Shown here piece after piece: positions 2,959 to 19,624 of a stretch of DNA of 64,000 nucleotides. The stretch lies in the IMG/VR virus record IMGVR_UViG_3300045988_005753; one strand, 5' to 3'. The stretch's first letter is position 1; each line of letters opens with the position of its first letter. This DNA is from a virus. Taxonomy: Duplodnaviria; Heunggongvirae; Uroviricota; Caudoviricetes. The notes beneath the pieces are model-generated. The model ran no database searches. It was not told the DNA's origin and worked only from the letters and a program-made list of their open reading frames with translations. The translations under genes and the position numbers were made by a program.

Positions 2959-3376
2959 AAGCTCTCCGAATAACCCTATTAAGCATCTCTAAAGTCAGCT
3001 TTCCAGATTCTAAATGTGGCACAATAAGTTTTAAAGCTTTTTCAACATCATGCACAACATCTATTATACCTTCTGCATAGGCTTCTACAAGGATATCTTT
3101 TACATTTTGTGATTTACCTTTTTGTGGTATCACTAGACGCATATCAAACTTATTTGCTTGAGGATGGTTCTTACCTTGCCAATAACCGTCTTTGTTAAAG
3201 CTGATGTAGTCACCGTGGTAAAAGTGTACACCATTAGCTTTAAACTTCTCCAGCACAAGGCATTGAATTGGGTATTCAGTATTCCACTCCCTGACTCCTA
3301 TAACCTTCACTGTTGCGATGTACTCCTGTGTTTTTGCATCTATGATGTCAAGTTCTTGACCAGCTATGATTTGCAT
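2948..3376 (-). CDS. hypothetical protein
   Basis: ATG start; operon-like packing with neighbours. Confidence 0.5.
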   Translation of the reverse strand: MQIIAGQELDIIDAKTQEYIATVKVIGVREWNTEYPIQCLVLEKFKANGVHFYHGDYISFNKDGYWQGKNHPQANKFDMRLVIPQKGKSQNVKDILVEAYAEGIIDVVHDVEKALKLIVPHLESGKLTLEMLNRVIRRAYEN

Positions 3377-3429
3377 ATTCGCTACCTTCTAAGTTTCTAC
3401 AAAGGGGCTATCAAGTAACCCCTAAGTTA

Positions 3430-3654
3430 TTACTCAGACTTTTCAGTCTTCTTATCGGATTTCTTACTAGTCTTCTTCTCAGCTTTCTGCTCAGGTTCCT
3501 TCTCAGGAGTTGCCTTGATAACCATATCAAGAAGCTCTGATAAGTCACTCTTCAGCAAAGTAACAGGCTGCTCGTTGTAGAAGTTTTTGTCAAGATAAAC
3601 TTTAAACTCTTCTATAGAAGGAAATCCAAAAATTGGTACAGGTGTCTTAATCAT
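3430..3654 (-). CDS. small lysine-rich hypothetical protein
   Basis: ATG start with GGAGAG RBS; KK-rich C-terminus. Confidence 0.5.
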   Translation of the reverse strand: MIKTPVPIFGFPSIEEFKVYLDKNFYNEQPVTLLKSDLSELLDMVIKATPEKEPEQKAEKKTSKKSDKKTEKSE

Positions 3655-4234: not shown

Positions 4235-4449
4235 TTTCCAACCCCTCTCAATCGTTTGTTCCATTCAAGGTCAACAAATCTTTGCAGGACTTTCCCTCTA
4301 GGTGTTACACCTTTTAAATCTGCATCGTAACAATGGTAAAAGTCACCTTCAGCATGTTTACCATAGCATTTTCTGATATTCTGGCTTCTGCGATACTGTT
4401 CTAACAAGGACAGTTTGTAGTAATCTTCAACTGTAGTTAGTTTTTTCAT
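4231..4449 (-). CDS. hypothetical protein
   Basis: ATGA start-stop coupling with the upstream gene. Confidence 0.5.
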   Translation of the reverse strand: MKKLTTVEDYYKLSLLEQYRRSQNIRKCYGKHAEGDFYHCYDADLKGVTPRGKVLQRFVDLEWNKRLRGVGK

Positions 4450-10789: not shown

Positions 10790-12205
10790 ATGAGCGAATT
10801 ATTTAAACATGCGCACCTTCATGCAGGTCGAACTGAAAATGGTGCTGTAAACCATACTTCATCAATGTCTGCTCTTGTAGACTTTTACAAAGCTGCTGGT
10901 TCAAGCCGTAGCAATGTAGAAATCTTACCAGACCTGTTCTACAAAGCTTTGCGTGAGGATGTTGATGTTGCAGTTCGTATTTTACTGCATATGCGAGATG
11001 TACGAGAAGGTATGGGTGAGCGTAAAGCCTTCAGAACTGTTTTGCTTCAAGCGATTGAAGATAAAGTTTTAGAGCCTACGCAGGTTCTTCGCATTATGGA
11101 TAAGATTGCAGAGCTTGGTCGTTTTGATGACTTCAAAATCTTTGTAGGTACTCGTTTCGAGACAGATGCCTTCAAGCATTTAGAAGCAGCATTACTAGAC
11201 CCTGCAACAGCAGGTTTGGCAGCTAAGTGGTTACCACGAGTCAAACCACGTCATAAGCAGTTTGTAAAACGTTTCTGCAAGTTTGCAAACTTGAGTGAGA
11301 AAGAGTACCGCACACTGCTGTCTGCACTATCTGATACAGTTGAACAAAAAATATCTGCTAATGAGTTTGGTAAGATTGACTACAGTAAGATTCCTTCACT
11401 TGCTGCTGCACGTTACCAAAAGCTCTTTAACCGTAAAGATGGAGAACGCTACAAAGCTTACATTGAGTCCTTATCAAAGGGCGAGACTAAGATTAATGCT
11501 GGTGCTGTTTATCCATATGATGTGATTAAATCTATCAAGTATGGTAATGCAGATGTTGCTAATGAGCAGTGGAAAGCACTACCAAACTGGATGGCAGAAG
11601 GTGAAAACATCCTGTGTATGACTGATGTTTCAAGCTCAATGTCTTGGGTGAATCTTGGTTCAATCACTGCCCTTGATATTGGTGTATCCCTTGCCTTGTA
11701 TGTAGCAGAACGCAATACAGGTTGTTTTAAGAATGAGTTAATGGTTTATTCAACAAACCCTCATTTCATCGAACTGAGTGGTGATTTACGAAACCGTCAT
11801 CGTCAGGTAATGCGTCATGTTGAATATGGTTCAACTAACTTACAAGCAGCTTTTGACCGCATTCTTGAAATAGGTAAGAGAAACAACTTGACTCAGGAAG
11901 ATATGCCAAGTAAGCTTATCATCTTCTCTGATATGGAGTTCAATCAGGTTGACGGTGCAAATGGTCATACAAACTTTGAAGCAATTCAGAGTAAGTACAA
12001 AAAAGCTGGATATGAGATGCCACAATTGGTATTCTGGTACTTAGCAAACCGTAATGGTACTTGCGAAGTGTCTGTTAAGGATAACGGTGTAGCAATGGTA
12101 TCTGGTTTCTCTCCAGCCACTTTAAAAGCTCTGCTTGGTGGTGAGAAGTTTGACCCAATCAGCGTAATGCTCAAAGCAGTAATGATTGACCGCTATATCT
12201 GGTAA
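10790..12205 (+). CDS. vWA-domain protein, candidate Ro60/TROVE-like RNA-binding protein
   Basis: 471 aa; helical N-terminal part then a DxSxS MIDAS-type motif (DVSSSMS) typical of vWA folds; sits directly upstream of the tRNA array that contains Y-RNA-like elements. Confidence 0.55.
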   Translation: MSELFKHAHLHAGRTENGAVNHTSSMSALVDFYKAAGSSRSNVEILPDLFYKALREDVDVAVRILLHMRDVREGMGERKAFRTVLLQAIEDKVLEPTQVLRIMDKIAELGRFDDFKIFVGTRFETDAFKHLEAALLDPATAGLAAKWLPRVKPRHKQFVKRFCKFANLSEKEYRTLLSALSDTVEQKISANEFGKIDYSKIPSLAAARYQKLFNRKDGERYKAYIESLSKGETKINAGAVYPYDVIKSIKYGNADVANEQWKALPNWMAEGENILCMTDVSSSMSWVNLGSITALDIGVSLALYVAERNTGCFKNELMVYSTNPHFIELSGDLRNRHRQVMRHVEYGSTNLQAAFDRILEIGKRNNLTQEDMPSKLIIFSDMEFNQVDGANGHTNFEAIQSKYKKAGYEMPQLVFWYLANRNGTCEVSVKDNGVAMVSGFSPATLKALLGGEKFDPISVMLKAVMIDRYIW

Positions 12206-12370: not shown

Positions 12371-12447
12371 CTCTGTTTAGCTCAGCTTGGTAGAGCGTTC
12401 CGTTTGGGGCGGTAAGGCCGGAGGTTCAAGTCCTCCAACAGAGACCA
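12371..12447 (+). tRNA. tRNA-Pro (UGG)
   Basis: cloverleaf folded by eye: acceptor CTCTGTT/AACAGAG, T-arm GGAGG-TTCAAGT-CCTCC, encoded CCA. Confidence 0.75.
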
Positions 12448-12454
12448 AATTAAT

Positions 12455-12532
12455 GTTCCAGTAGACAAAATGGTAAAGTCACCACTCTTTCAAAGTGGAT
12501 ATTTGAGGGTTCAAATCCCTTCTGGAACGCCA
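12455..12532 (+). tRNA. tRNA-Glu (UUC)
   Basis: acceptor GTTCCAG/CTGGAAC, anticodon stem CCACT/AGTGG, loop CTTTCAA, CCA. Confidence 0.75.
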
Positions 12533-12537
12533 GTTTT

Positions 12538-12618
12538 GACAGAAGACCAATTACAGCAAACTTAATCTTATTCATCTGAAGGTAAATCGGACAAAGAAGA
12601 GATTTGGTCTGGTCATTA
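12538..12618 (+). ncRNA. stem-bounded structured element A (ACAGAAGACCAATTACAGCAA ... TTGGTCTGG)
   Basis: 5' AGACCAA pairs with 3' TTGGTCT; compensatory changes relative to elements B and C. Confidence 0.4.
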
Positions 12619-12623
12619 AGAAT

Positions 12624-12700
12624 TGCGGGTATAGAGAAAGGGCGTCTCACATGTCTCATTAGCATGGTATCGGCAGGTTCGACTCCTGCACCCGCCTCCA
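12624..12700 (+). tRNA. tRNA-Met-like (CAU), irregular acceptor with a 1:72 mismatch
   Basis: T-arm GCAGG-TTCGACT-CCTGC, anticodon stem CATGT/GCATG, loop CTCATTA, CCA; 5' boundary uncertain. Confidence 0.5.
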
Positions 12701-12705
12701 AATTT

Positions 12706-12776
12706 ACAGAAGACCGTTTACAGCAACATTTATTAAATTTTTAGCGGAAAAATTGAAAGATACGGTCTGGTAATAC
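12706..12776 (+). ncRNA. stem-bounded structured element B (ACAGAAGACCGTTTACAGCAA ... ACGGTCTGG)
   Basis: 5' AGACCGT pairs with 3' ACGGTCT; internal AATTTTT-AGCGG-AAAAATT hairpin. Confidence 0.4.
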
Positions 12777-12783
12777 TAAACAT

Positions 12784-12860
12784 GGTTAGGAAGCACATAA
12801 GGTATGTGCGGTCGCCTGTTAAGCGAATGGCACAGGGTTCGAATCCCTGACTAACCGCCA
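12784..12860 (+). tRNA. tRNA-Asn (GUU)
   Basis: acceptor GGTTAGG/ACTAACC, D-stem GCAC/GTGC, loop CTGTTAA, T-arm CAGGG-TTCGAAT-CCCTG, CCA. Confidence 0.75.
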
Positions 12861-12929
12861 AATTTAGGAGAGAAGCGATTGCTCACCGATTTGTAAGGTG
12901 CAAGTCCTTAGCCTGAATAGAAATTAAAT

Positions 12930-13017
12930 GTGTCGTTATCCCGTAGATGGTAGCGGTGGGGACTGTAAATCCCTTGTCATTGAGACTCGGTAGGTTCGAC
13001 TCCTACACGGCACACCA
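12930..13017 (+). tRNA. tRNA-Tyr (GUA), long variable arm
   Basis: 88 nt; acceptor GTGTCGT/ACGGCAC, loop CTGTAAA, T-arm GTAGG-TTCGACT-CCTAC, CCA. Confidence 0.7.
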
Positions 13018-13022
13018 ATAAA

Positions 13023-13100
13023 GGTTATGTAGTTTAATCTGGTTAAAATACTCCCCTGTCACGGGAGATGATGAGGGTTCAAATCCCTTCGTAACCGCCA
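13023..13100 (+). tRNA. tRNA-Asp (GUC)
   Basis: acceptor GGTTATG/CGTAACC, anticodon stem CTCCC/GGGAG, loop CTGTCAC, CCA. Confidence 0.75.
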
Positions 13101-13124
13101 ATTTTGAGAGGGCTATTTAGCCCC

Positions 13125-13160
13125 TCCCTTAAAGAGTTCTTACGAGTATTCTTTAAAGGA
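13125..13160 (+). other. conserved hairpin (stem CCTTAAAGA/TCTTTAAAGG, loop containing TTCTTACGAG)
   Basis: same hairpin family recurs at 13974-14005 and 16466-16495, each time in a spacer of the tRNA array. Confidence 0.45.
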
Positions 13161-13161
13161 G

Positions 13162-13240
13162 CAGAAGGCCAAATACAGCAAGAATGTATGAAATTTCAAG
13201 CCAATTTAATTTTGAAAATTTAAAACTTGGTCTGGCTCAA
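13162..13240 (+). ncRNA. stem-bounded structured element D (AGAAGGCCAAATACAGCAAG ... TTGGTCTGG)
   Basis: 5' GGCCAA pairs with 3' TTGGTC (one G-U); same ACAGCAA core as A, B and C. Confidence 0.35.
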
Positions 13241-13247
13241 CAAATTT

Positions 13248-13385
13248 ACAGAAGACCGTTTACAGCAAAACTTAAACAATCTATTTCTCCGGTAAAGAAA
13301 AGGCGAAGGTTCGATTCCTTCACTCGGCAGATGTCGAGTTGGTGTAATGGTAGCACTTAAGATGATAAACAACGGTCTGGTAATT
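13248..13385 (+). ncRNA. candidate Y-RNA / YrlA-like tRNA mimic: closing stem around a circularly permuted tRNA-like module
   Basis: order read directly: 5' stem AGACCGTT, T-arm GAAGG-TTCGATT-CCTTC, acceptor 3' strand ACTCGGC, 4-nt loop, acceptor 5' strand GTCGAGT, D-arm GTGT-AATGGTA-GCAC, 3' stem AACGGTCT. Confidence 0.5.
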
Positions 13386-13529
13386 ATCTTTGTAGATAAG
13401 TTATTAAGCTTACCTGTGAGTATGCGACCACAAAGGGTGAATGGGTAAATTCTAGATTTAAACCCAAAAAGGCACATCGCTACAGACCTTAAGCAAGTCT
13501 GGGTAGCTTATCTACAAAGATAATTTAAT

Positions 13530-13605
13530 GGAAGTGTAGCAGAATGGTGATGCGGCAGACTTTTAATCTGACAGGCGATGGGTTCGAATCCCTCCACTTC
13601 TACCA
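13530..13605 (+). tRNA. tRNA-Lys (UUU)
   Basis: acceptor GGAAGTG/CACTTCT, loop CTTTTAA, T-loop TTCGAAT, CCA. Confidence 0.7.
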
Positions 13606-13609
13606 ATAT

Positions 13610-13686
13610 GGTTCAGTCGCAGATAAGGTAATGCAAGGGTCTCATAAGCCCTATGAATGTGGGTTCGATTCCCATCTGAACCTCCA
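13610..13686 (+). tRNA. tRNA-Met or tRNA-Ile2 (CAU)
   Basis: acceptor GGTTCAG/CTGAACC, anticodon stem AGGGT/GCCCT, loop CTCATAA, CCA. Confidence 0.7.
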
Positions 13687-13687
13687 A

Positions 13688-13763
13688 GCTGGTATAGTTA
13701 AGAAGGTTATAACACTCCCCTGATAAGGGAACATCGGTGGTTCGATTCCACCTACCAGTACCA
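13688..13763 (+). tRNA. tRNA-Ile (GAU)
   Basis: acceptor GCTGGTA/TACCAGT, D-stem GTTA/TAAC, loop CTGATAA, T-arm GGTGG-TTCGATT-CCACC, CCA. Confidence 0.7.
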
Positions 13764-13778
13764 ATTTCAATAAAGTTG

Positions 13779-13807
13779 TTGACATTGAGATGTGACTACT
13801 TTATAGT
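13779..13807 (+). promoter_or_regulatory. internal sigma70-type promoter within the tRNA array
   Basis: TTGACA, 17-bp spacer, TATAGT. Confidence 0.5.
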
Positions 13808-13973
13808 AACCTTAGTTTTCGTTGCGTAGCGTCTATTTTGCAAATTTAAAATAAATGCAAACGACAATGTTTTTCTGGCAGTAGCTTGATAGGCTAAACA
13901 CCAGTGAGGTCTTCCAATCCCTCATCAAAGAATTTGGCGTACTCGCCCACGGTATGATTAATAAGGTGGGCAT

Positions 13974-14005
13974 CTTTAAGGACTTTCTAAGAGAGTCTTT
14001 AAAGA
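13974..14005 (+). other. conserved hairpin (stem CTTTAAGGA/TCTTTAAAG, loop CTTTCTAAGAGAG)
   Basis: member of the TTCT(T)A(C/A)GAGAG-loop hairpin family. Confidence 0.45.
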
Positions 14006-14009
14006 TAAT

Positions 14010-14086
14010 GCACCCTTAGTTCAATTGGATAGAGCAACGGTCTTCTAAATCGTTAGTTACAGGTTCGAATCCTGTAGGGTGTACCA
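14010..14086 (+). tRNA. tRNA-Arg (UCU)
   Basis: acceptor GCACCCT/AGGGTGT, anticodon stem ACGGT/ATCGT, loop CTTCTAA, T-arm ACAGG-TTCGAAT-CCTGT, CCA. Confidence 0.75.
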
Positions 14087-14228
14087 AATAGTTAGCAGAT
14101 TACTTAGACTGCCTTAGCGGGTCTTCCTGTAGGGAGGTGGTCTGTATCTCATGTTTTCCAGAACATGTAAATAATCTGAGAAGAAGCTTGACAGTGTTGA
14201 GATAACAGGGTAAGCTTCGAATTATAAT

Positions 14229-14311
14229 ATGGGACGATGTTAAGACTCTAAGGCATGAGCAACGGCCTCCAAAACCGTTTCAAAGGGGTTCAACTCCTCC
14301 GTCCCATGCCA
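14229..14311 (+). tRNA. tRNA-like gene, probably tRNA-Trp (CCA), with an enlarged irregular D-region
   Basis: perfect 7-bp acceptor ATGGGAC/GTCCCAT, T-loop TTCAACT, CCA end, anticodon loop CTCCAAA; 83 nt. Confidence 0.5.
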
Positions 14312-14324
14312 AAGTCTTATTAGG

Positions 14325-14414
14325 GGTAGGTAGCGGCTAATGGCAGCCAAACAGTCTTGAAAACTGTTGCCACTGTAGAGATACGGTGAGGGTTCGACTC
14401 CTTTACTTACCGCC
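14325..14414 (+). tRNA. tRNA-Ser (UGA), long variable arm; CCA apparently not encoded
   Basis: acceptor GGTAGGT/ACTTACC, anticodon stem ACAGT/ACTGT, loop CTTGAAA, T-loop TTCGACT. Confidence 0.65.
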
Positions 14415-14565
14415 TAATAAGATTTACTCCGTCCATGCTTGTTCGCATTGTCGGTTTATCCCTCGTGTATTGTCGTACACTGTCAAAGCACCTAGTAGGT
14501 GTCATGGAGAGAGATAATATCAAGCTCTCCAAAGGTTCTAGTCACCGGATTAAACAAGACTATGC

Positions 14566-14588
14566 AAAGACCTAAATAGGTCTTTTTA
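14566..14588 (+). terminator. rho-independent terminator-like hairpin inside the tRNA array
   Basis: AAGACC-TAAATA-GGTCTT followed by TTTTT. Confidence 0.45.
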
Positions 14589-14591
14589 GAG

Positions 14592-14650
14592 GGCTTCTAA
14601 GGTTATTACAGCTTGTTGTGGAACCTTGTTGCTTAGGTTCTTAGAAGTTC
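14592..14650 (+). other. long hairpin (CTTCTAAGG ... CTTAGAAG)
   Basis: 8-bp inverted repeat around a 40-nt loop; related to the CTAAGG hairpin family. Confidence 0.35.
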
Positions 14651-14666
14651 TCTAAAAAGATTTAAT

Positions 14667-14744
14667 GGGAGATTGACGGTAATTGGTAAACCTACCATCC
14701 TTAGAAGTTGGTGTTTGAGGGTTCGAATCCCTTGTCTCCTACCA
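14667..14744 (+). tRNA. tRNA with anticodon UAG (Leu-type) but a short variable arm
   Basis: acceptor GGGAGAT/GTCTCCT, D-loop AATTGGTAA (Leu-like), anticodon stem CCATC/GTTGG, loop CTTAGAA, A73, CCA; 78 nt. Confidence 0.6.
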
Positions 14745-14751
14745 AATTAAT

Positions 14752-14827
14752 GCAGGTGTAGCAAAATGGTTATGCGGCTGACTCTTAATCAGTAAGACGA
14801 TGGGTTCAATTCCCTCCACCTGTACCA
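14752..14827 (+). tRNA. tRNA-Lys (CUU)
   Basis: acceptor GCAGGTG/CACCTGT, anticodon stem GCTGA/TCAGT, loop CTCTTAA, CCA; close paralog of the Lys(UUU) gene. Confidence 0.7.
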
Positions 14828-14833
14828 AACAAT

Positions 14834-14909
14834 GGGGTCATAGTTTATATGGTTAAAATTCGAGTTTTGCAAACTTGGGAACTGAGTTCAATTCTCAGTG
14901 ACTCCACCA
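14834..14909 (+). tRNA. tRNA-Ala (UGC)
   Basis: acceptor GGGGTCA/TGACTCC, anticodon stem CGAGT/ACTTG, loop TTTGCAA, T-arm CTGAG-TTCAATT-CTCAG, CCA. Confidence 0.75.
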
Positions 14910-14915
14910 ATTAGT

Positions 14916-14990
14916 GCATCCATAGTTTAAACGGGAAAATTACAGTCTTCCAAACTGAGGTTGAGGGTTCGATTCCCTCTGGATGCTCCA
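14916..14990 (+). tRNA. tRNA-Gly (UCC)
   Basis: acceptor GCATCCA/TGGATGC, loop CTTCCAA, T-arm GAGGG-TTCGATT-CCCTC, CCA. Confidence 0.7.
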
Positions 14991-14997
14991 AATTAAT

Positions 14998-15073
14998 GCT
15001 CCTATCGTATAATTGGTTATTACGGTTGCCTTGTAAGCAACTTATCAGGGTTCGAGTCCTTGTGGGAGCACCA
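14998..15073 (+). tRNA. tRNA-Thr (UGU)
   Basis: acceptor GCTCCTA/TGGGAGC, anticodon stem GTTGC/GCAAC, loop CTTGTAA, CCA. Confidence 0.75.
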
Positions 15074-15074
15074 A

Positions 15075-15165
15075 TTCAGAGGTCAAGTGAAAGACCGCTT
15101 TGAGTCAACTGAAGACCGTAACAAATTCCACGGAGTTGAGTTAGCGGCACAACTCCAGACCTCTT
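15075..15165 (+). ncRNA. structured spacer element E (long-range stem CAGAGGTC/GACCTCT, internal hairpin GGAGTTG...CAACTCC, GAAGACCGTAACAA motif)
   Basis: inverted repeats read directly; shares the GAAGACCGT core with elements A-D. Confidence 0.35.
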
Positions 15166-15169
15166 TCAT

Positions 15170-15244
15170 ACTCGCTTAGTTTATATGGTAAAACATCACC
15201 CTTACAAGATGAAGAAAAAGGTTCAAGTCCTTTAGTGAGTACCA
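15170..15244 (+). tRNA. tRNA-Val (UAC)
   Basis: acceptor ACTCGCT/AGTGAGT, D-stem GTTT/AAAC, anticodon stem TCACC/GATGA, loop CTTACAA, CCA. Confidence 0.7.
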
Positions 15245-15245
15245 T

Positions 15246-15323
15246 GTTCCAGTATCCCAATTGGCAGAGGATGCAAGCTCAAACCTTGTATTAGTGACGG
15301 TTCGAATCCGTCTTGGAACACCA
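15246..15323 (+). tRNA. tRNA with anticodon CAA (Leu-type) but a short variable arm
   Basis: acceptor GTTCCAG/TTGGAAC, D-loop AATTGGCAGAG (Leu-like), anticodon stem GCAAG/CTTGT, loop CTCAAAC, A73, CCA. Confidence 0.6.
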
Positions 15324-15328
15324 ATTTT

Positions 15329-15404
15329 GCAGGATTAGTTCAAATGGAAAGAGCAACAGTCTACGAAGCTGTTAATAGGGGTTCGAATCCCTTATCCTGC
15401 GCCA
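15329..15404 (+). tRNA. tRNA-Arg (ACG)
   Basis: acceptor GCAGGAT/ATCCTGC, D-stem GTTC/GAGC, anticodon stem ACAGT/GCTGT, loop CTACGAA, CCA. Confidence 0.75.
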
Positions 15405-15421
15405 GATAAAAAGGTGACACT

Positions 15422-15664
15422 ATGCAAACATTAACAGTAGTTGAACATGAAAACTGTGAGAGTATTGAGTTTGTCAGGGTCATTGGTGTTGAACACCACA
15501 TTTTCTTAAAAGTGGGATACTTATGTGACCCCGCTAGAGTAGAAAGATTTATACGTGATTGTTTTGGTGGTAGACATCTGAAGAGTGTTATTTTTGAGAC
15601 AGTTTTACCAGAAGGTTTAGAAACGAATAATAACATTTACCTCCTTACGAGGATTAGACAATGA
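15422..15664 (+). CDS. hypothetical protein embedded in the tRNA array
   Basis: ATG with AGGTGA RBS; ATGA coupling to the next ORF. Confidence 0.45.
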   Translation: MQTLTVVEHENCESIEFVRVIGVEHHIFLKVGYLCDPARVERFIRDCFGGRHLKSVIFETVLPEGLETNNNIYLLTRIRQ

Positions 15665-16218
15665 GATACTTAAAGTATGCTTCATGGATTTTCTTAGCTT
15701 TGTTAGAGCCATTTGCAGCAATCTTAGCAGTTATCTTAGCACCTTTCGTAGTTCCATTCTACAGTGAGAAGAAAGGACATCTACCTTTCGGGTTCAGATG
15801 GATGGAAACTTATGACAACCCAATTGATGGTGATGAAGGTCACGTTAAAAGATGGGCTAATATTAGATGGATTGGTAAACTAGGTGTCTACATGCAAAGA
15901 GTCGGATGGCTCTGGAGAAACAAAGCTTATAACTTCTCTTACCATGTATTAGGGAGAGATGTAAAAGATGTTACTAAGTGGAAAGGTAATATCAACGTAA
16001 GTTCTGACCCTGAAGATAATCAGACAGGTTATCTCCTAATGTGGAACAGTAATGCTTGGGGATTATTCGCTTTTATCCCATCAATTAAAATCTTTGGTAA
16101 ACAATTTTACTGGAGAATTTATATTGGATGGAAACTAAAAAGTGTTGTCCCAGAAGAAAGAGCATTCTCAAGGGAAAGAGTTATGTTGGCATTCTTTATT
16201 CATCCACTGAGAAAGTAA
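15661..16218 (+). CDS. membrane protein embedded in the tRNA array
   Basis: N-terminal hydrophobic segment WIFLALLEPFAAILAVILAPFVVPF; 185 aa. Confidence 0.5.
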   Translation: MRYLKYASWIFLALLEPFAAILAVILAPFVVPFYSEKKGHLPFGFRWMETYDNPIDGDEGHVKRWANIRWIGKLGVYMQRVGWLWRNKAYNFSYHVLGRDVKDVTKWKGNINVSSDPEDNQTGYLLMWNSNAWGLFAFIPSIKIFGKQFYWRIYIGWKLKSVVPEERAFSRERVMLAFFIHPLRK

Positions 16219-16226
16219 AGATTTAA

Positions 16227-16302
16227 AGGGGATTAGTTTACAAGGTTAAAACCTCGGTCTTTGAAATCGAAGAAGTTGGTTCAATTCCAACATCCCCCGC
16301 CA
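16227..16302 (+). tRNA. tRNA-Gln (UUG)
   Basis: acceptor AGGGGAT/ATCCCCC, anticodon stem TCGGT/ATCGA, loop CTTTGAA, T-arm GTTGG-TTCAATT-CCAAC, CCA. Confidence 0.7.
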
Positions 16303-16304
16303 AT

Positions 16305-16383
16305 GCTCCATTACTCCAATTGGCAGAGAGGCCAGACTTAAAATCTGTGTTATGTATCGGTTCGAATCCGATATGGAGTACCA
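16305..16383 (+). tRNA. tRNA with anticodon UAA (Leu-type) but a short variable arm
   Basis: acceptor GCTCCAT/ATGGAGT, D-loop AATTGGCAGAG (Leu-like), loop CTTAAAA, T-arm ATCGG-TTCGAAT-CCGAT, A73, CCA. Confidence 0.6.
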
Positions 16384-16388
16384 AATTT

Positions 16389-16464
16389 AGCGGTATAGCA
16401 TAACTGGCAATGCAGCAGTCTCTGAAGCTGTCTTATTAAGGTTCAAATCCTTATGCCGCTGCCA
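16389..16464 (+). tRNA. tRNA-Gln (CUG)
   Basis: acceptor AGCGGTA/TGCCGCT, anticodon stem GCAGT/GCTGT, loop CTCTGAA, CCA. Confidence 0.65.
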
Positions 16465-16465
16465 C

Positions 16466-16495
16466 TTCTAAGGATTCTTACGAGAGTCCTTAAAT
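16466..16495 (+). other. conserved hairpin (stem TAAGGA/TCCTTA, loop TTCTTACGAGAG)
   Basis: member of the TTCTTACGAG-loop hairpin family. Confidence 0.45.
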
Positions 16496-16571
16496 GTGGC
16501 CTTATCATAAATGGTAATGACCCATGCTGTGAACATGGTCTATACGGGTTCAAATCCCGTAGGTCACCCCA
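16496..16571 (+). tRNA. tRNA-His (GUG)
   Basis: acceptor GTGGCCT/AGGTCAC, D-stem TCAT/ATGA, anticodon stem CCATG/CATGG, loop CTGTGAA, CCA. Confidence 0.75.
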
Positions 16572-16576
16572 ATTTA

Positions 16577-16653
16577 TAGTCCAAGTAGCTTATATGGTTA
16601 AAGCGCGTGTCTGAAAAACATGAGAAGAGGGTTCAAATCCCACTGGACTACCA
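16577..16653 (+). tRNA. tRNA-Phe (GAA)
   Basis: acceptor TAGTCCA/TGGACTA, anticodon stem CGTGT/ACATG, loop CTGAAAA, T-loop TTCAAAT, CCA; 5' end uncertain by 1 nt. Confidence 0.65.
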
Positions 16654-16669
16654 ATTTCAAAGGTGCTTA

Positions 16670-17404
16670 ATGAAAGAGATGACAGAACAAGGTAAGGAGA
16701 TTTTTAATCTCTTAAAAACTGGTAAAGGGTTTTCTAACCCCCTTATTACTGGTGCAGCAGTTCTCGGTGGAACCGTAGCTGCCTCCACATCACTTGTAAG
16801 CTCTATTAGTTCTGTATCAGACCCTACAGTAAAAGATAAGCTTGTTGCTGCTGGACTTACAACAGTTCTGCTTAACAGCTTTACCACGAGTCTGACAAGC
16901 ACTACATCAACTACCAAAACACTGACAGATTACGGTCAAAAGTCCATTGATGAGTTTTCATCACGTATGCAGGTAGCAAAAGGTTATTCTAATGTTATGG
17001 GTGCAGCAGGTGAACAAGTTGGCTGTACACCATTTAGTGGTATTATGGGTGTTGCTACAGAGTATGGTCAAAAAGCTATTGATACGATTAACAGTGCACT
17101 AGACGGTGTTAATGATGTATTAAGTGATTTACAAGACGCTATTGACAAAGGTCTTGATACTATTTCTGATTTAGCTAACCAAGCTGTTAGTAAGATTAAT
17201 GAAGGTATCTCGAAGATTACAGCTTATGCAGATGAAGTTGTGCAGATGATTGAAGAAGAAGCTGCCCTTATTGCAGAGTACCTTAAAACGAATATCAATG
17301 GGTTCTTAGCAGGTATCTTACCAGACTGGTTTGATGATGCTTGTAAAACTGGTGTAATTGACACTATTGCAACACCAGAAATGAAGAACGCATTACAGAA
17401 ATAA
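16670..17404 (+). CDS. hypothetical Ser/Thr-rich protein
   Basis: track ORF starts inside tRNA-Phe; first ATG downstream of the tRNA (16670) has an AAAGGTG RBS. Confidence 0.5.
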   Translation: MKEMTEQGKEIFNLLKTGKGFSNPLITGAAVLGGTVAASTSLVSSISSVSDPTVKDKLVAAGLTTVLLNSFTTSLTSTTSTTKTLTDYGQKSIDEFSSRMQVAKGYSNVMGAAGEQVGCTPFSGIMGVATEYGQKAIDTINSALDGVNDVLSDLQDAIDKGLDTISDLANQAVSKINEGISKITAYADEVVQMIEEEAALIAEYLKTNINGFLAGILPDWFDDACKTGVIDTIATPEMKNALQK

Positions 17405-17405
17405 T

Positions 17406-17498
17406 GGAAGATTAACCCTAAAAGGTAAGGGAGCAGTTTGCTAAACTGCCAGTAGCTGAGAAATCGGTGTACCAGTTCAAGTCTGGTATCTTCCTCCA
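17406..17498 (+). tRNA. tRNA-Ser (GCU), long variable arm
   Basis: 93 nt; acceptor GGAAGAT/ATCTTCC, anticodon stem GCAGT/ACTGC, loop TTGCTAA, T-arm ACCAG-TTCAAGT-CTGGT, CCA. Confidence 0.7.
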
Positions 17499-17502
17499 AT
17501 TT

Positions 17503-17578
17503 GAATCCGTGACAGAAATGGCTATGTGCCTGTCTGCAAAACAGGTTTATAAGGGTTCGAGTCCCTTCGGATTCTCCA
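17503..17578 (+). tRNA. tRNA-Cys (GCA)
   Basis: acceptor GAATCCG/CGGATTC, anticodon stem CCTGT/ACAGG, loop CTGCAAA, T-arm AAGGG-TTCGAGT-CCCTT, CCA. Confidence 0.75.
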
Positions 17579-18001: not shown

Positions 18002-18022
18002 TTCTATTTGCGGAGGCGCTTA

Positions 18023-19624
18023 ATGGACTTAAATGCTGTTAAGCAGAAGCGAGTGGAAGATGTTAGGAAAGTCCTAGCTGGAGAGTTGGGGCTTTCTGAT
18101 GAAGTAAAAGAAATTATTAAATCATTCGGTAAAGACCCCTCTAAATTCCTTCCAACTCAAATTCTGACTTTATTAAGATACACACCAGACCAAGTTCGCC
18201 TTATCTTTAAATTGATGACTGATAAGAATTATGTAGCCCCTCAGCCGGGTTCTCAAGAGGTCTTTTTAAATACTAATGCTGACTTGGTTCTTTATGGTGG
18301 TGCTGCTGGTGCTGGTAAAACTGCTGCATTGTTAATGGACTCTCTAAGATTTATTGAAGACCCTAACTATAATGCTGTATATTTCCGTCGAAATACAACA
18401 CAGCTACAAGGTGGTTTATGGCCTGCTGCAAAGAAACTATTTGGTAAGTTTGGTGGGATTCCTCACGAGCAGAAAATGACTATCACATTCCCTTCTGGGG
18501 CAACTATCAAGTTTACCTACCTAGAACTTGAAAAGCACGCTGAAGGTCATCAGGGTATTGAGTATTCAGCCATTTACTTTGACGAAGGTACACACTTCTC
18601 CGCTTCACAGATTTCATACCTACAAACCCGTCTACGTTCTGGTGCTGAAGGTGATTCATACATGAAGATTTCCATGAACCCAGACAGAGACCACTTTATT
18701 TATGATTGGGTGGAGCCATTCTTAGATGAAGAAGGCTATCCAGACCCTGAAAAGTGTGGTCGTATTCGTTGGTATGTAATGAATGATGGTGTGATGGTTT
18801 CTGATTGGGAGAGAGACAAGATTCTTGAAATGTTCCCTCTTGAGATTCCTCAAACATACACCTTTATCTCTGGTACGATTGATGATAACCCAATCCTTGA
18901 CTTCTTAGAGCCTAAGTACCGTGGTAAGTTGGAAAACAACACCCCTGTAAACGTTGCAAGACTTCGTTTCGGTAACTGGAAGGCTCGTGCAGAAGGTTCA
19001 AACTATTGGCAAAGACAATGGTGTGAAATTGTTGATTCACTCCCAGAAGATGTATTTGATGTTAGAGCATGGGACTTAGCAGCAACTTTACCATCTGAGG
19101 TTAACCCTAATCCAGACTGGACAGCAGGTGTTAAGATGGGTAAATCTAAAAAAGACGGTTGCTATTATATCATTGATGTAGTAAGATTTAGAGATAGACC
19201 CTCTGGAGTCGAAACACAAATTAATTTGACTGCTGAAAGTGACGGTAAGCGAACTGGTATTTTTATCCCTCAAGACCCAGGCGCTGCTGGTAAATCCTAC
19301 GCAACATCCCTCATCAGGAAACTTGCCGAGAAAGGTTATCGAGCAAGAGCCAAACCAACAAATAAAGATAAAGTTACCCGCTTTGCGGGATTTTCTGCTG
19401 CTTCTGAAGCTGGACTTGTAAAAGTCTTGAGAGGTAGTTGGAATGAAGCTTACTTTCAAGAACTTGAAGGCTTTTGTGGTGATGGTAAAACTAAAGATGA
19501 CCAAGTGGATGCTACCAGTGATGCTTTCAACAGTCTTAACGAAGTTAAATTATTCAAGCCACCATCAATGGGTGCTCACACAGATTTAGTGAGAGGAAAC
19601 CCATATGAGGGGCTTAGACGTTGA
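18023..19624 (+). CDS. terminase large subunit
   Basis: Walker A LVLYGGAAGAGKTAAL near the N-terminus; track ORF starts on TTG at 18008, ATG at 18023 has a GGAGG RBS. Confidence 0.85.
   Translation: MDLNAVKQKRVEDVRKVLAGELGLSDEVKEIIKSFGKDPSKFLPTQILTLLRYTPDQVRLIFKLMTDKNYVAPQPGSQEVFLNTNADLVLYGGAAGAGKTAALLMDSLRFIEDPNYNAVYFRRNTTQLQGGLWPAAKKLFGKFGGIPHEQKMTITFPSGATIKFTYLELEKHAEGHQGIEYSAIYFDEGTHFSASQISYLQTRLRSGAEGDSYMKISMNPDRDHFIYDWVEPFLDEEGYPDPEKCGRIRWYVMNDGVMVSDWERDKILEMFPLEIPQTYTFISGTIDDNPILDFLEPKYRGKLENNTPVNVARLRFGNWKARAEGSNYWQRQWCEIVDSLPEDVFDVRAWDLAATLPSEVNPNPDWTAGVKMGKSKKDGCYYIIDVVRFRDRPSGVETQINLTAESDGKRTGIFIPQDPGAAGKSYATSLIRKLAEKGYRARAKPTNKDKVTRFAGFSAASEAGLVKVLRGSWNEAYFQELEGFCGDGKTKDDQVDATSDAFNSLNEVKLFKPPSMGAHTDLVRGNPYEGLRR

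Follow-up and report, generated by a model that had tools for sequence, protein, structure and literature searches.

Leucine transfer RNA (tRNA) is held to bear a long variable arm in every organism save in animal mitochondria, according to a 2023 review (PMC9976931). Within the 64,000-nucleotide (nt) stretch of viral DNA analysed here (IMG/VR record IMGVR_UViG_3300045988_005753; hereafter, the window), three tRNA genes with the leucine anticodons UAG, CAA and UAA have no such arm. They fold as cloverleaves, are conserved and show covariation of their stems; the CAA and UAA genes belong to a type I family, the leucine codons of the phage keep their standard meaning, and the three are its only leucine tRNAs. 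We consider it likely that the three genes of this Felix O1-like phage encode functional type I leucine tRNAs, which the leucyl-tRNA synthetase (LeuRS) of the host would charge, and we put this no more strongly because the Escherichia coli enzyme did not charge a type I leucine tRNA from Streptomyces.

Three leucine tRNA genes without a long variable arm

ARAGORN recovered the three genes at exactly the coordinates and with the anticodons given in an original prediction made from the sequence alone, and all of them also match the Rfam tRNA cloverleaf (RF00005) above its gathering score of 29 bits, with E-values from 5.5e-6 to 4.6e-8 (Table 1). CCA is encoded in each gene, so that the 78 to 79 nt announced in that prediction shrink to 75 to 76 nt without it, and the positional parse likewise bears out the predicted discriminator, A73, in all three. 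The same parse gives variable regions of 5 nt in Leu(UAG) (TGTTT), 6 nt in Leu(CAA) (ATTAGT) and 7 nt in Leu(UAA) (GTTATGT); the predicted shortness of this region thus stands, and its size needs correction from 4–6 to 5–7 nt. None of these regions approaches the stem-loop of more than 10 nt that defines type II tRNAs. An alternative fold with a long variable arm, which the original prediction had named as the result that would count against it, is impossible for these sequences, and the minimum-free-energy folds of the UAG and UAA genes, which are not cloverleaves, give no arm either.

All three genes have a 7-bp acceptor stem, a 5-bp T stem and U48 opposite A15. The D-loops in the ARAGORN cloverleaves are TAATTGGTAAA in Leu(UAG) and CAATTGGCAGA in both Leu(CAA) and Leu(UAA). 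In Leu(CAA), the D arm reads UCC-CAAUUGGCAGA-GGA, with C13.A22 unpaired, A14, A15, G18G19 and A20a in place and U48 in the variable loop; in Leu(UAA), it reads CUC-CAAUUGGCAGA-GAG, with U48 again in the variable loop. The layout common to the two genes can be written as YCC-C-AAUUGGCAGA-GGR, with a 3-bp D stem and an unpaired 13.22. Leu(UAG) is less regular: its D arm has one nucleotide too many and a weak 3-bp stem with an ambiguous pairing register, although the leucine bases are kept, and its anticodon stem contains a U.U mismatch (U30.U40).

The window belongs to a Felixounavirus, its tRNA region being 94–98% identical to that of more than 200 genomes of Salmonella and E. coli phages (Felix O1, wV8 and relatives). 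As originally predicted, the tRNA-Tyr and both tRNA-Ser genes have long arms and no long-arm leucine gene accompanies them: ARAGORN found none in the window, and the complete Felix O1 genome (AF320576), with 25 tRNAs, has none either, its only three leucine genes measuring 78, 78 and 79 nt. Public Felixounavirus records label this region 'tRNA-Leu (x3)', and homologs are called tRNA-Leu in public records, including one annotated with tRNAscan-SE via RASTtk. We also considered whether the leucine genes defeat automatic annotation, as the label 'tRNA-OTHER x3' in phage FSL SP-012 seemed to imply; the genes so labelled are two tRNA-Ser and a tRNA-His, and the leucine genes there are labelled tRNA-Leu.

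The anticodon loops show some peculiarities of their own. In Leu(UAG) (loop at 14700–14706), A37 follows G36, where the CUN-reading leuV of E. coli has G37, which we take to be the m1G37 site. The loop of Leu(CAA) (15278–15284) reads A36-A37-C38 and is without the A36-A37-A38 motif used by MiaA. The position-37 modifications of the phage leucine tRNAs may therefore be different from those of their host counterparts. Viral short-arm leucine tRNAs have A at position 37 in 40 cases and G in 15.

Leucine identity

In E. coli, leucine identity is set by A73, the A15-U48 Levitt pair, G18G19, A20a and the tertiary contacts between the D and T arms, and neither the anticodon nor the long arm is required (Giegé and Eriani review, PMC9976931). 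Charging of the phage tRNAs by the host enzyme is plausible because LeuRS ignores the anticodon and needs no long arm. The anticodons UAG, CAA and UAA all fall within the leucine set (NAG or YAA). As for the core and elbow, that is, A14, A15-U48, G18G19, A20a, a 3-bp D stem and an unpaired 13.22, Leu(CAA) and Leu(UAA) reproduce the E. coli layout exactly; Leu(UAG) has the same bases and was counted with them, its D arm carrying the extra nucleotide and ambiguous register described above. Through A73 and this retained elbow and core, the LeuRS of E. coli or Salmonella would leucylate all three.

The E. coli isoacceptors leuV/P/Q (CAG), leuZ (UAA) and leuX (CAA) share with the phage tRNAs A73, the A15-U48 Levitt pair and a canonical T loop, and have a common D-arm layout: a 10-12 stem, then N13 A14 A15 U16 Y17 G18 G19 Y20 A20a G21 A22, then a 23-25 stem. 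They differ in being 85–87 nt long, in their 13–15 nt stem-loop arm and in having G.A at 13.22, where the phage has C.A. A functional precedent is offered by arm-deleted and minimalist E. coli tRNA-Leu variants (Larkin et al. 2002; Asahara et al. 1993, 1998, as summarized in PMC9976931). According to that summary, E. coli LeuRS charges armless bodies provided that A73 and the D/T tertiary contacts are intact, which is exactly the set that the phage tRNAs keep, although the variants it covers were engineered and assayed in vitro whereas the phage tRNAs are natural.

A set of 993 viral tRNAs shows how far these features are specific to leucine. The combined signature occurs in 54 of 58 short-arm and 31 of 34 long-arm leucine tRNAs, as against 42 of 721 other class I tRNAs, and A73 is present in 57/58 short and 33/34 long leucine tRNAs. 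To judge from these sequences, the leucine discriminator is the unpaired 13.22 together with A73. Two simpler marks did not hold up. The D-loop string AATTGG(C/T)A (AATTGGCAGA), which the original prediction took to be typical of tRNA-Leu, proved not to be leucine-specific: in viral contigs, its carriers with short spacing are mostly Asn (27), Lys (17), Thr (15) or Trp (11) tRNAs, and AATTGG D-loops also occur in the Arg-tct and Thr tRNAs of the window. The A15-U48 pair was likewise dropped as a leucine-specific mark within this phage.

Further support comes from two models. As a stand-in for the tRNAscan-SE isotype models proposed in the original prediction, a position-weight (PWM) classifier in which the anticodon loop and the variable region were masked was trained for leucine on long-arm leucine tRNAs only and has a leave-one-out accuracy of 0.74; it assigned 37 of 55 viral short-arm leucine tRNAs to leucine and ranked leucine first for both Leu(UAG) and Leu(CAA). 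A type I leucine covariance model was built from 45 type I leucine tRNAs taken from actinobacteria and from unrelated phages, Ounavirinae being left out. Leu(CAA) (71.2 bits) and Leu(UAA) (71.1 bits) are its two best matches in the window, the next being Arg-tct at 60.1 bits, 11 bits lower. Assignment of the isotype by nearest neighbour in global alignments with the anticodon loop masked was uninformative and was abandoned, as controls missed their own isotype and long tRNAs were favoured. Anticodons, A73, the core set, the signature counts and the classifier, along with the covariation described below, thus all support the type I leucine reading put forward in the original prediction.

Conservation, covariation and decoding

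Leu(CAA) is found with at least 99% identity in 160 phage records and Leu(UAA) in 216. In an alignment of 46 distinct short-arm leucine tRNAs, prefiltered for reasonable stems, 98.2% of the cells are paired and both sides have changed in 19 of the 20 pairs; the covariation score of this set is 1.017, compared with 0.25 for shuffles and 0.13–0.19 for slid partners. Leu(UAG) exists in Felixounaviruses as two alleles that differ throughout the 5-bp anticodon stem and yet both remain paired, CCATC/GTTGG (with the U.U mismatch) in one and TCTCG/CGAGA in the other. The stem allele of the window, including U30.U40, is common to homologs in phage BF23 and in a Seunavirus, a hint that unrelated coliphages have exchanged segments of tRNA genes.

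The phage, with a G+C content of 39%, uses leucine codons differently from its host: TTA accounts for 25%, CTT for 27.5%, CTA for 13% and CTG for 15% of its leucine codons, against 8%, 8%, 3% and 58%, respectively, in eleven E. coli genes. UUA, CUU and CUA are thus 3–4 times commoner in the AT-rich phage. Given this difference, the anticodons UAA, CAA and UAG serve codons that the phage over-uses, and by standard wobble rules the three together should read all or nearly all six leucine codons; the tRNAs would in this way supply leucine decoding for AT-rich phage codons. When phage NrdA, NrdB and ThyA are aligned with their E. coli homologs, 37 of 107 phage leucine codons fall on leucine and 77 of 107 on L, I, V, M or F, a rate in line with that of other amino acids at the same divergence. 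Since the leucine codons align to leucine or to similar residues, the phage uses the standard code.

Evidence of function comes from the tRNA-Leu1 of BF23, a phage of the Demerecviridae and hence of a family other than that of Felix O1. Leu(UAG) is about 84% identical to the Leu(UAG) of BF23, of many T5-like phages and of a Seunavirus. The BF23 tRNA (AJ604530) is of type I, 77 nt long, and has the same T arm and the same U30.U40 mismatch as its Felix O1 counterpart; the variable loops are alike in style (GTTTT and TGTTT), and the D arm is regular in BF23 (AUG-GAAUUGGCAUA-CAU), whereas that of Felix O1 has an extra nucleotide and a weaker stem. According to the GenBank entry, BF23 tRNAL1 given a CUA anticodon is an 'effective amber suppressor', from which it follows that E. 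coli processes, charges and uses a close type I homolog. Leu(UAG) is assigned to type I on account of its identity to the BF23-type Leu(UAG) and of the classifier result, and not on the covariance model.

The tRNA-Leu1(UAG) of T5 (NC_005859, 31624–31708) resembles that of BF23 in anticodon, host and position, within the order Ala-Leu-Ser2-Ser1, and its amber derivative also suppresses. It differs in being an 85-nt type II tRNA with a 13-nt arm and an unrelated stem sequence. At this locus, the type II leucine gene of T5 is followed by the HNH endonuclease gene hegC, and BF23 has its unrelated type I leucine gene without the endonuclease; insertion of a homing endonuclease may have accompanied a replacement of the leucine gene.

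The irregularities of Leu(UAG) raise the question of whether these genes are decaying, non-functional relics of type II leucine genes from which the arm was deleted. Its mismatches in the D and anticodon stems, its low model scores and the label 'tRNA-Pseudo-TAG', given in one record to its homolog in Yersinia phage phiR2-01, could be taken in that sense. Decay is nevertheless hard to reconcile with near-perfect conservation and compensatory changes across genera, with a genome that has no other leucine tRNA, with the suppressor activity of the BF23 homolog and with the same design in a core actinobacterial gene, so that we regard this explanation as extremely improbable.

Type I leucine tRNAs in other systems and the question of charging

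A natural precedent is Streptomyces coelicolor, which has four type II isoacceptors and one type I tRNA-Leu(CAA) (Fan, Huang, Ji, Wang 2019, NAR 47:6369; PMC6614811). The S. coelicolor enzyme (ScoLeuRS) charges both types, its leucine-specific domain making the charging of type I possible, and charging needs a variable loop of at least 5 nt (PMC6614811), a length that all three phage tRNAs reach. Like the phage tRNAs, the S. coelicolor molecule combines a leucine anticodon with a short loop of 5 nt (ACAGC), and it is charged by a normal bacterial LeuRS, with A14-U8 being important. It differs from them in that it is encoded on the host chromosome as one of five isoacceptors, whereas in Felix O1 the genes are phage-borne and all three leucine tRNAs are of type I; in that it has C48, whereas the phage tRNAs have U48 pairing with A15; in that ScoLeuRS does not use A73 for identity; and in that the E. 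coli enzyme failed to charge it, whereas E. coli or Salmonella is where the phage tRNAs have to function. Animal mitochondrial tRNA-Leu also has a short variable loop and uses A73 and A14 as identity elements, but it is organellar, is served by a dedicated mitochondrial LeuRS and has an anticodon branch that the review describes as floppy (PMC9976931). Beyond these cases, one paper remarks in passing on a cluster-encoded tRNA-Leu(TAG) of Mycobacterium whose variable loop is short, and another paper implies that only three of the five leucine tRNAs of M. tuberculosis have long loops. In the literature searched, subscription papers on the T5 and BF23 tRNAs lying outside its scope, we found no description of type I tRNA-Leu in phages.

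Several observations count against charging by the host enzyme or against leucine identity. Foremost, E. coli LeuRS 'could not leucylate' the S. coelicolor type I tRNA-Leu(CAA) and is described as a type II-only enzyme (PMC6614811). This failure may not transfer to the phage tRNAs, since the S. coelicolor tRNA has C48 and those of the phage have U48; it means, all the same, that type I charging by the E. coli enzyme cannot be assumed. The searchable literature holds no aminoacylation or expression data for Felix O1 tRNAs, and AJ604530 names no amino acid for the insertion by the BF23 suppressor. Within the phage, A15-U48 is shared by eight other isotypes of the cluster (Glu, Asp, Arg, Gly, Thr, Gln, His and Cys). 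The classifier ranks Glu first for Leu(UAA), with leucine second by 1.5 nats. Leu(UAG), which has the weak irregular D arm and the lowest Rfam score (40.0 bits), obtains 58.7 bits with the type I leucine model, equal to Glu (58.7) and below Arg-tct (60.1).

Resemblance between Glu and Leu is also seen elsewhere in the cluster. Glu(UUC), at 12455–12532, and Leu(CAA), at 15246–15323, have an identical 5' acceptor strand, GTTCCAG, and the classifier ranks leucine second for the Glu tRNA. Duplication followed by isotype switching within the cluster could account for such resemblances.

From these observations, one could argue that the tRNAs are not substrates of the host LeuRS at all and instead carry another amino acid, need a phage factor, or act as decoys, primers or regulators. 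The failure of the E. coli enzyme in vitro on the Streptomyces tRNA, the marginally closer fit of Leu(UAA) to Glu along with the acceptor strand shared by Leu(CAA) and Glu, and the unnamed amino acid of the BF23 suppressor would fit such a role. The rules that other synthetases follow speak against it. Most of them read the anticodon and would reject UAG, CAA and UAA; alanyl-tRNA synthetase needs G3:U70, of which none was seen in the three sequences, and seryl-tRNA synthetase (SerRS) needs a long arm and G73, both absent here. In addition, the three anticodons form a set that covers the leucine codon boxes, mischarging would be harmful as phage leucine codons stand for leucine or for hydrophobic residues like it, hundreds of isolates carry the CAA and UAA genes nearly unchanged, and the same design recurs in phages of Enterococcus, Lactobacillus, Aeromonas, Erwinia and Xanthomonas. 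We therefore consider a role other than as a LeuRS substrate very unlikely. Regarding a phage-encoded enzyme, no aminoacyl-tRNA synthetase is annotated in the Felix O1 record, in which most open reading frames are labelled 'unknown'.

Distribution of short-arm leucine tRNAs in phages and bacteria

Inspection of homologous phage tRNAs, a check proposed in the original prediction, revealed the same short leucine design in many phages. BLAST and ARAGORN identified short leucine tRNAs in an Erwinia Kolesnikvirus, an Enterococcus Schiekvirus, Lactobacillus phage LpeD, an Aeromonas member of the Demerecviridae, a Seunavirus and Xanthomonas phage X1. Among IMG/VR loci, the short-arm share of leucine tRNAs is 28/60 (47%) in a first sample, picked via non-leucine tRNAs bearing AATTGGCAGA, and 7/40 (17.5%) in a second, independently chosen sample, picked via non-leucine tRNAs bearing GCTCAGTTGGTAGAGC; because the estimate depends on the sample, we give the prevalence as a range. 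The commonest variable loop of viral short leucine tRNAs is ACAGT, which may be compared with ACAGC in S. coelicolor.

Some of these phages have further unusual features in their tRNA regions. In LpeD, ARAGORN reports two tRNAs, at 1296–1387 and 2574–2645 of the stretch analysed: the first has a long-arm length of 92 nt and the Ile anticodon UAU, the second a four-base anticodon (tttg). Enterococcus phage EFGrKN has a transfer-messenger RNA (tmRNA) gene inside its tRNA cluster (3303–3650), with the tag peptide AKNEELLAVA. Both LpeD tRNAs and the EFGrKN tmRNA are unannotated in the records analysed.

Short-arm leucine tRNAs are also present in bacteria, with at least 111 in species-representative genomes, at least 83 of which have the anticodon UAA. 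The majority of the matches listed stand alone on the chromosomes of Nocardia, Mycobacterium, Gordonia, Rhodococcus, Arthrobacter and related genera; among the same matches, a 74-nt type I tRNA-Leu(UAA) stands alone and is conserved across many Actinobacteria, Rothia included (e.g., 4324–4398 of one contig). Because its flanking gene is kept in Nocardia, Rhodococcus and Dietzia, we take this tRNA to be a housekeeping gene and not part of a prophage. Its distribution is broader than the single published Streptomyces CAA case. Other bacterial matches lie in dense tRNA arrays (12–35 per 8 kb) of Cyanobacteria, Planctomycetota and Actinobacteria. No similar short gene, whether of prophage or host origin, was matched in 5,426 complete E. 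coli genomes. The leucine tRNAs of the window are accordingly 'unusual', as they were originally called, by the standard of textbooks; in nature, where they are frequent in phages and chromosomal in Actinobacteria, with S. coelicolor reported in 2019, the word does not apply.

Judging by their sequence features, Leu(CAA), Leu(UAA) and Leu(UAG) belong to a large short-arm family that spans phages of many hosts and actinobacterial chromosomes. Two subtypes can be distinguished: one with C13.A22 and loops like ACAGT (CAA and UAA of Felix O1, and the actinobacterial genes), the other with G13.A22 and loops like GTTTT (BF23 and, in modified form, UAG of Felix O1). This division suggests that the short-arm leucine tRNA may have had more than one origin. 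Most simply, Felix O1 would not have invented the short arm but inherited it from a type I tRNA-Leu lineage in circulation.

Arm loss is distributed very unevenly among isotypes. In the viral contigs, short forms number only 1 among 84 Ser tRNAs and 3 among 44 Tyr tRNAs, shortness being called from the variable-region parse for the first sample and from length for the second. Among class II isotypes, arm loss thus occurs almost only where the synthetase tolerates it, that is, in leucine. Leucine tRNA would be free to lose its arm and Ser and Tyr tRNAs would not, since bacterial SerRS and tyrosyl-tRNA synthetase use the arm as an identity element.

The same pattern invites an explanation in terms of counter-defence, which competes with neutral inheritance alone. 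Phage leucine tRNAs without an arm might evade toxins that grip class II tRNAs by it (nucleotidyltransferases of the MenT3/AbiEii type or similar), so that leucine decoding would go on when host tRNA-Leu is disabled, with the host LeuRS still charging. The over-representation of short-arm leucine tRNAs in both samples of viral contigs, the near restriction of arm loss to leucine and the absence of a similar gene from E. coli genomes are in keeping with this idea. No toxin is known, however, to target tRNA-Leu via the arm in Enterobacteria, and the AbiE system of Streptococcus agalactiae gave no protection against 32 coliphages in published work. The Ser and Tyr tRNAs of the phage, which retain the arm, would stay vulnerable, T5 copes with a type II leucine tRNA where BF23 has a type I, and a conserved actinobacterial housekeeping gene of the same design needs no defence explanation. 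It is unlikely, in our estimate, that short arms serve counter-defence, and equally unlikely that type I leucine genes spread in phages as arm-gripping toxins and nucleases miss them while bacterial LeuRSs in general accept natural type I tRNAs, that of E. coli included, notwithstanding its published description as type II-only. Inheritance of a type I lineage charged by the host enzyme remains our preferred account.

The tRNA cluster and its surroundings

The three leucine genes are part of a large tRNA cluster (Table 1), in which the Tyr, Ser-tga and Ser-gct genes are the sole long-arm members.

Table 1. Position and properties of the leucine tRNA genes, other tRNA features and neighbouring genes in the window
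Feature	Position	Strand	Size	Remarks	Source
tRNA cluster	12371..17578	all +	26 tRNA genes	nearly all with encoded CCA	ARAGORN, Rfam
tRNA-Leu(UAG), type I	14667..14744	+	78 nt with CCA	Rfam tRNA 40.0 bits	ARAGORN, Rfam
tRNA-Leu(CAA), type I	15246..15323	+	78 nt with CCA	Rfam tRNA 44.0 bits	ARAGORN, Rfam
tRNA-Leu(UAA), type I	16305..16383	+	79 nt with CCA	Rfam tRNA 47.5 bits	ARAGORN, Rfam
tRNA-Tyr, long arm	12930-13017	+	88 nt	variable region 15	ARAGORN, positional parse
tRNA-Ser-tga, long arm	14325-14414	+	90 nt	variable region 20	ARAGORN, positional parse
tRNA-Ser-gct, long arm	17406-17498	+	93 nt	variable region 21	ARAGORN, positional parse
tRNA-like element	14231-14305	+		sub-threshold; between Arg-tct and Ser-tga	
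Partial tRNA match	13272-13322			weaker, 22 bits	
Protein preceding the cluster	10790-12205	+	471 aa	DUF2828, DUF7788, weak von Willebrand A match	
DUF7338 protein	15661-16218	+	185 aa	interleaved with tRNAs	
DUF7217 protein	16607-17404	+	265 aa	interleaved with tRNAs	
Large terminase subunit	18008-19624			downstream of the cluster	

Of the protein-coding neighbours, the two interleaved with the tRNA genes have no assigned function. The cluster also contains a sub-threshold tRNA-like element. Its acceptor-like helix has 6 bp (GGGACG/CGTCCC), GGGGTTCAACTCC forms its T arm, and its anticodon loop CUCCAAA would give the anticodon CCA (Trp). Its D region is oversized and CCA does not directly follow the discriminator; the type I leucine model gives the element 15.2 bits, and Rfam tRNA-Sec 23 bits (E = 0.12). 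ARAGORN found no tRNA-Trp in the window.

Implications

Type I tRNA-Leu is already known from Streptomyces, and the genes studied here are already labelled tRNA-Leu in hundreds of records; what the present genes add is a phage-borne member of this kind. The molecule itself is an ordinary component of translation, and the notion that it helps phages to escape tRNA-targeting defence systems would add to its interest if true. In Actinobacteria, the conserved chromosomal type I tRNA-Leu(UAA) of many species stands against the view of type I as a rarity taken in the 2019 paper (PMC6614811). Natural short-arm tRNAs of this kind offer substrates for probing what bacterial LeuRS requires, the E. coli enzyme included, as well as compact leucine tRNA scaffolds for suppressor engineering, and their uneven occurrence constitutes a natural experiment on arm loss among class II isotypes. 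For the phages, the results mean that a virus of E. coli and Salmonella relies exclusively on type I for its own leucine tRNAs, and that roughly one fifth to one half of the leucine tRNAs in two samples of viral contigs are built in the same way.

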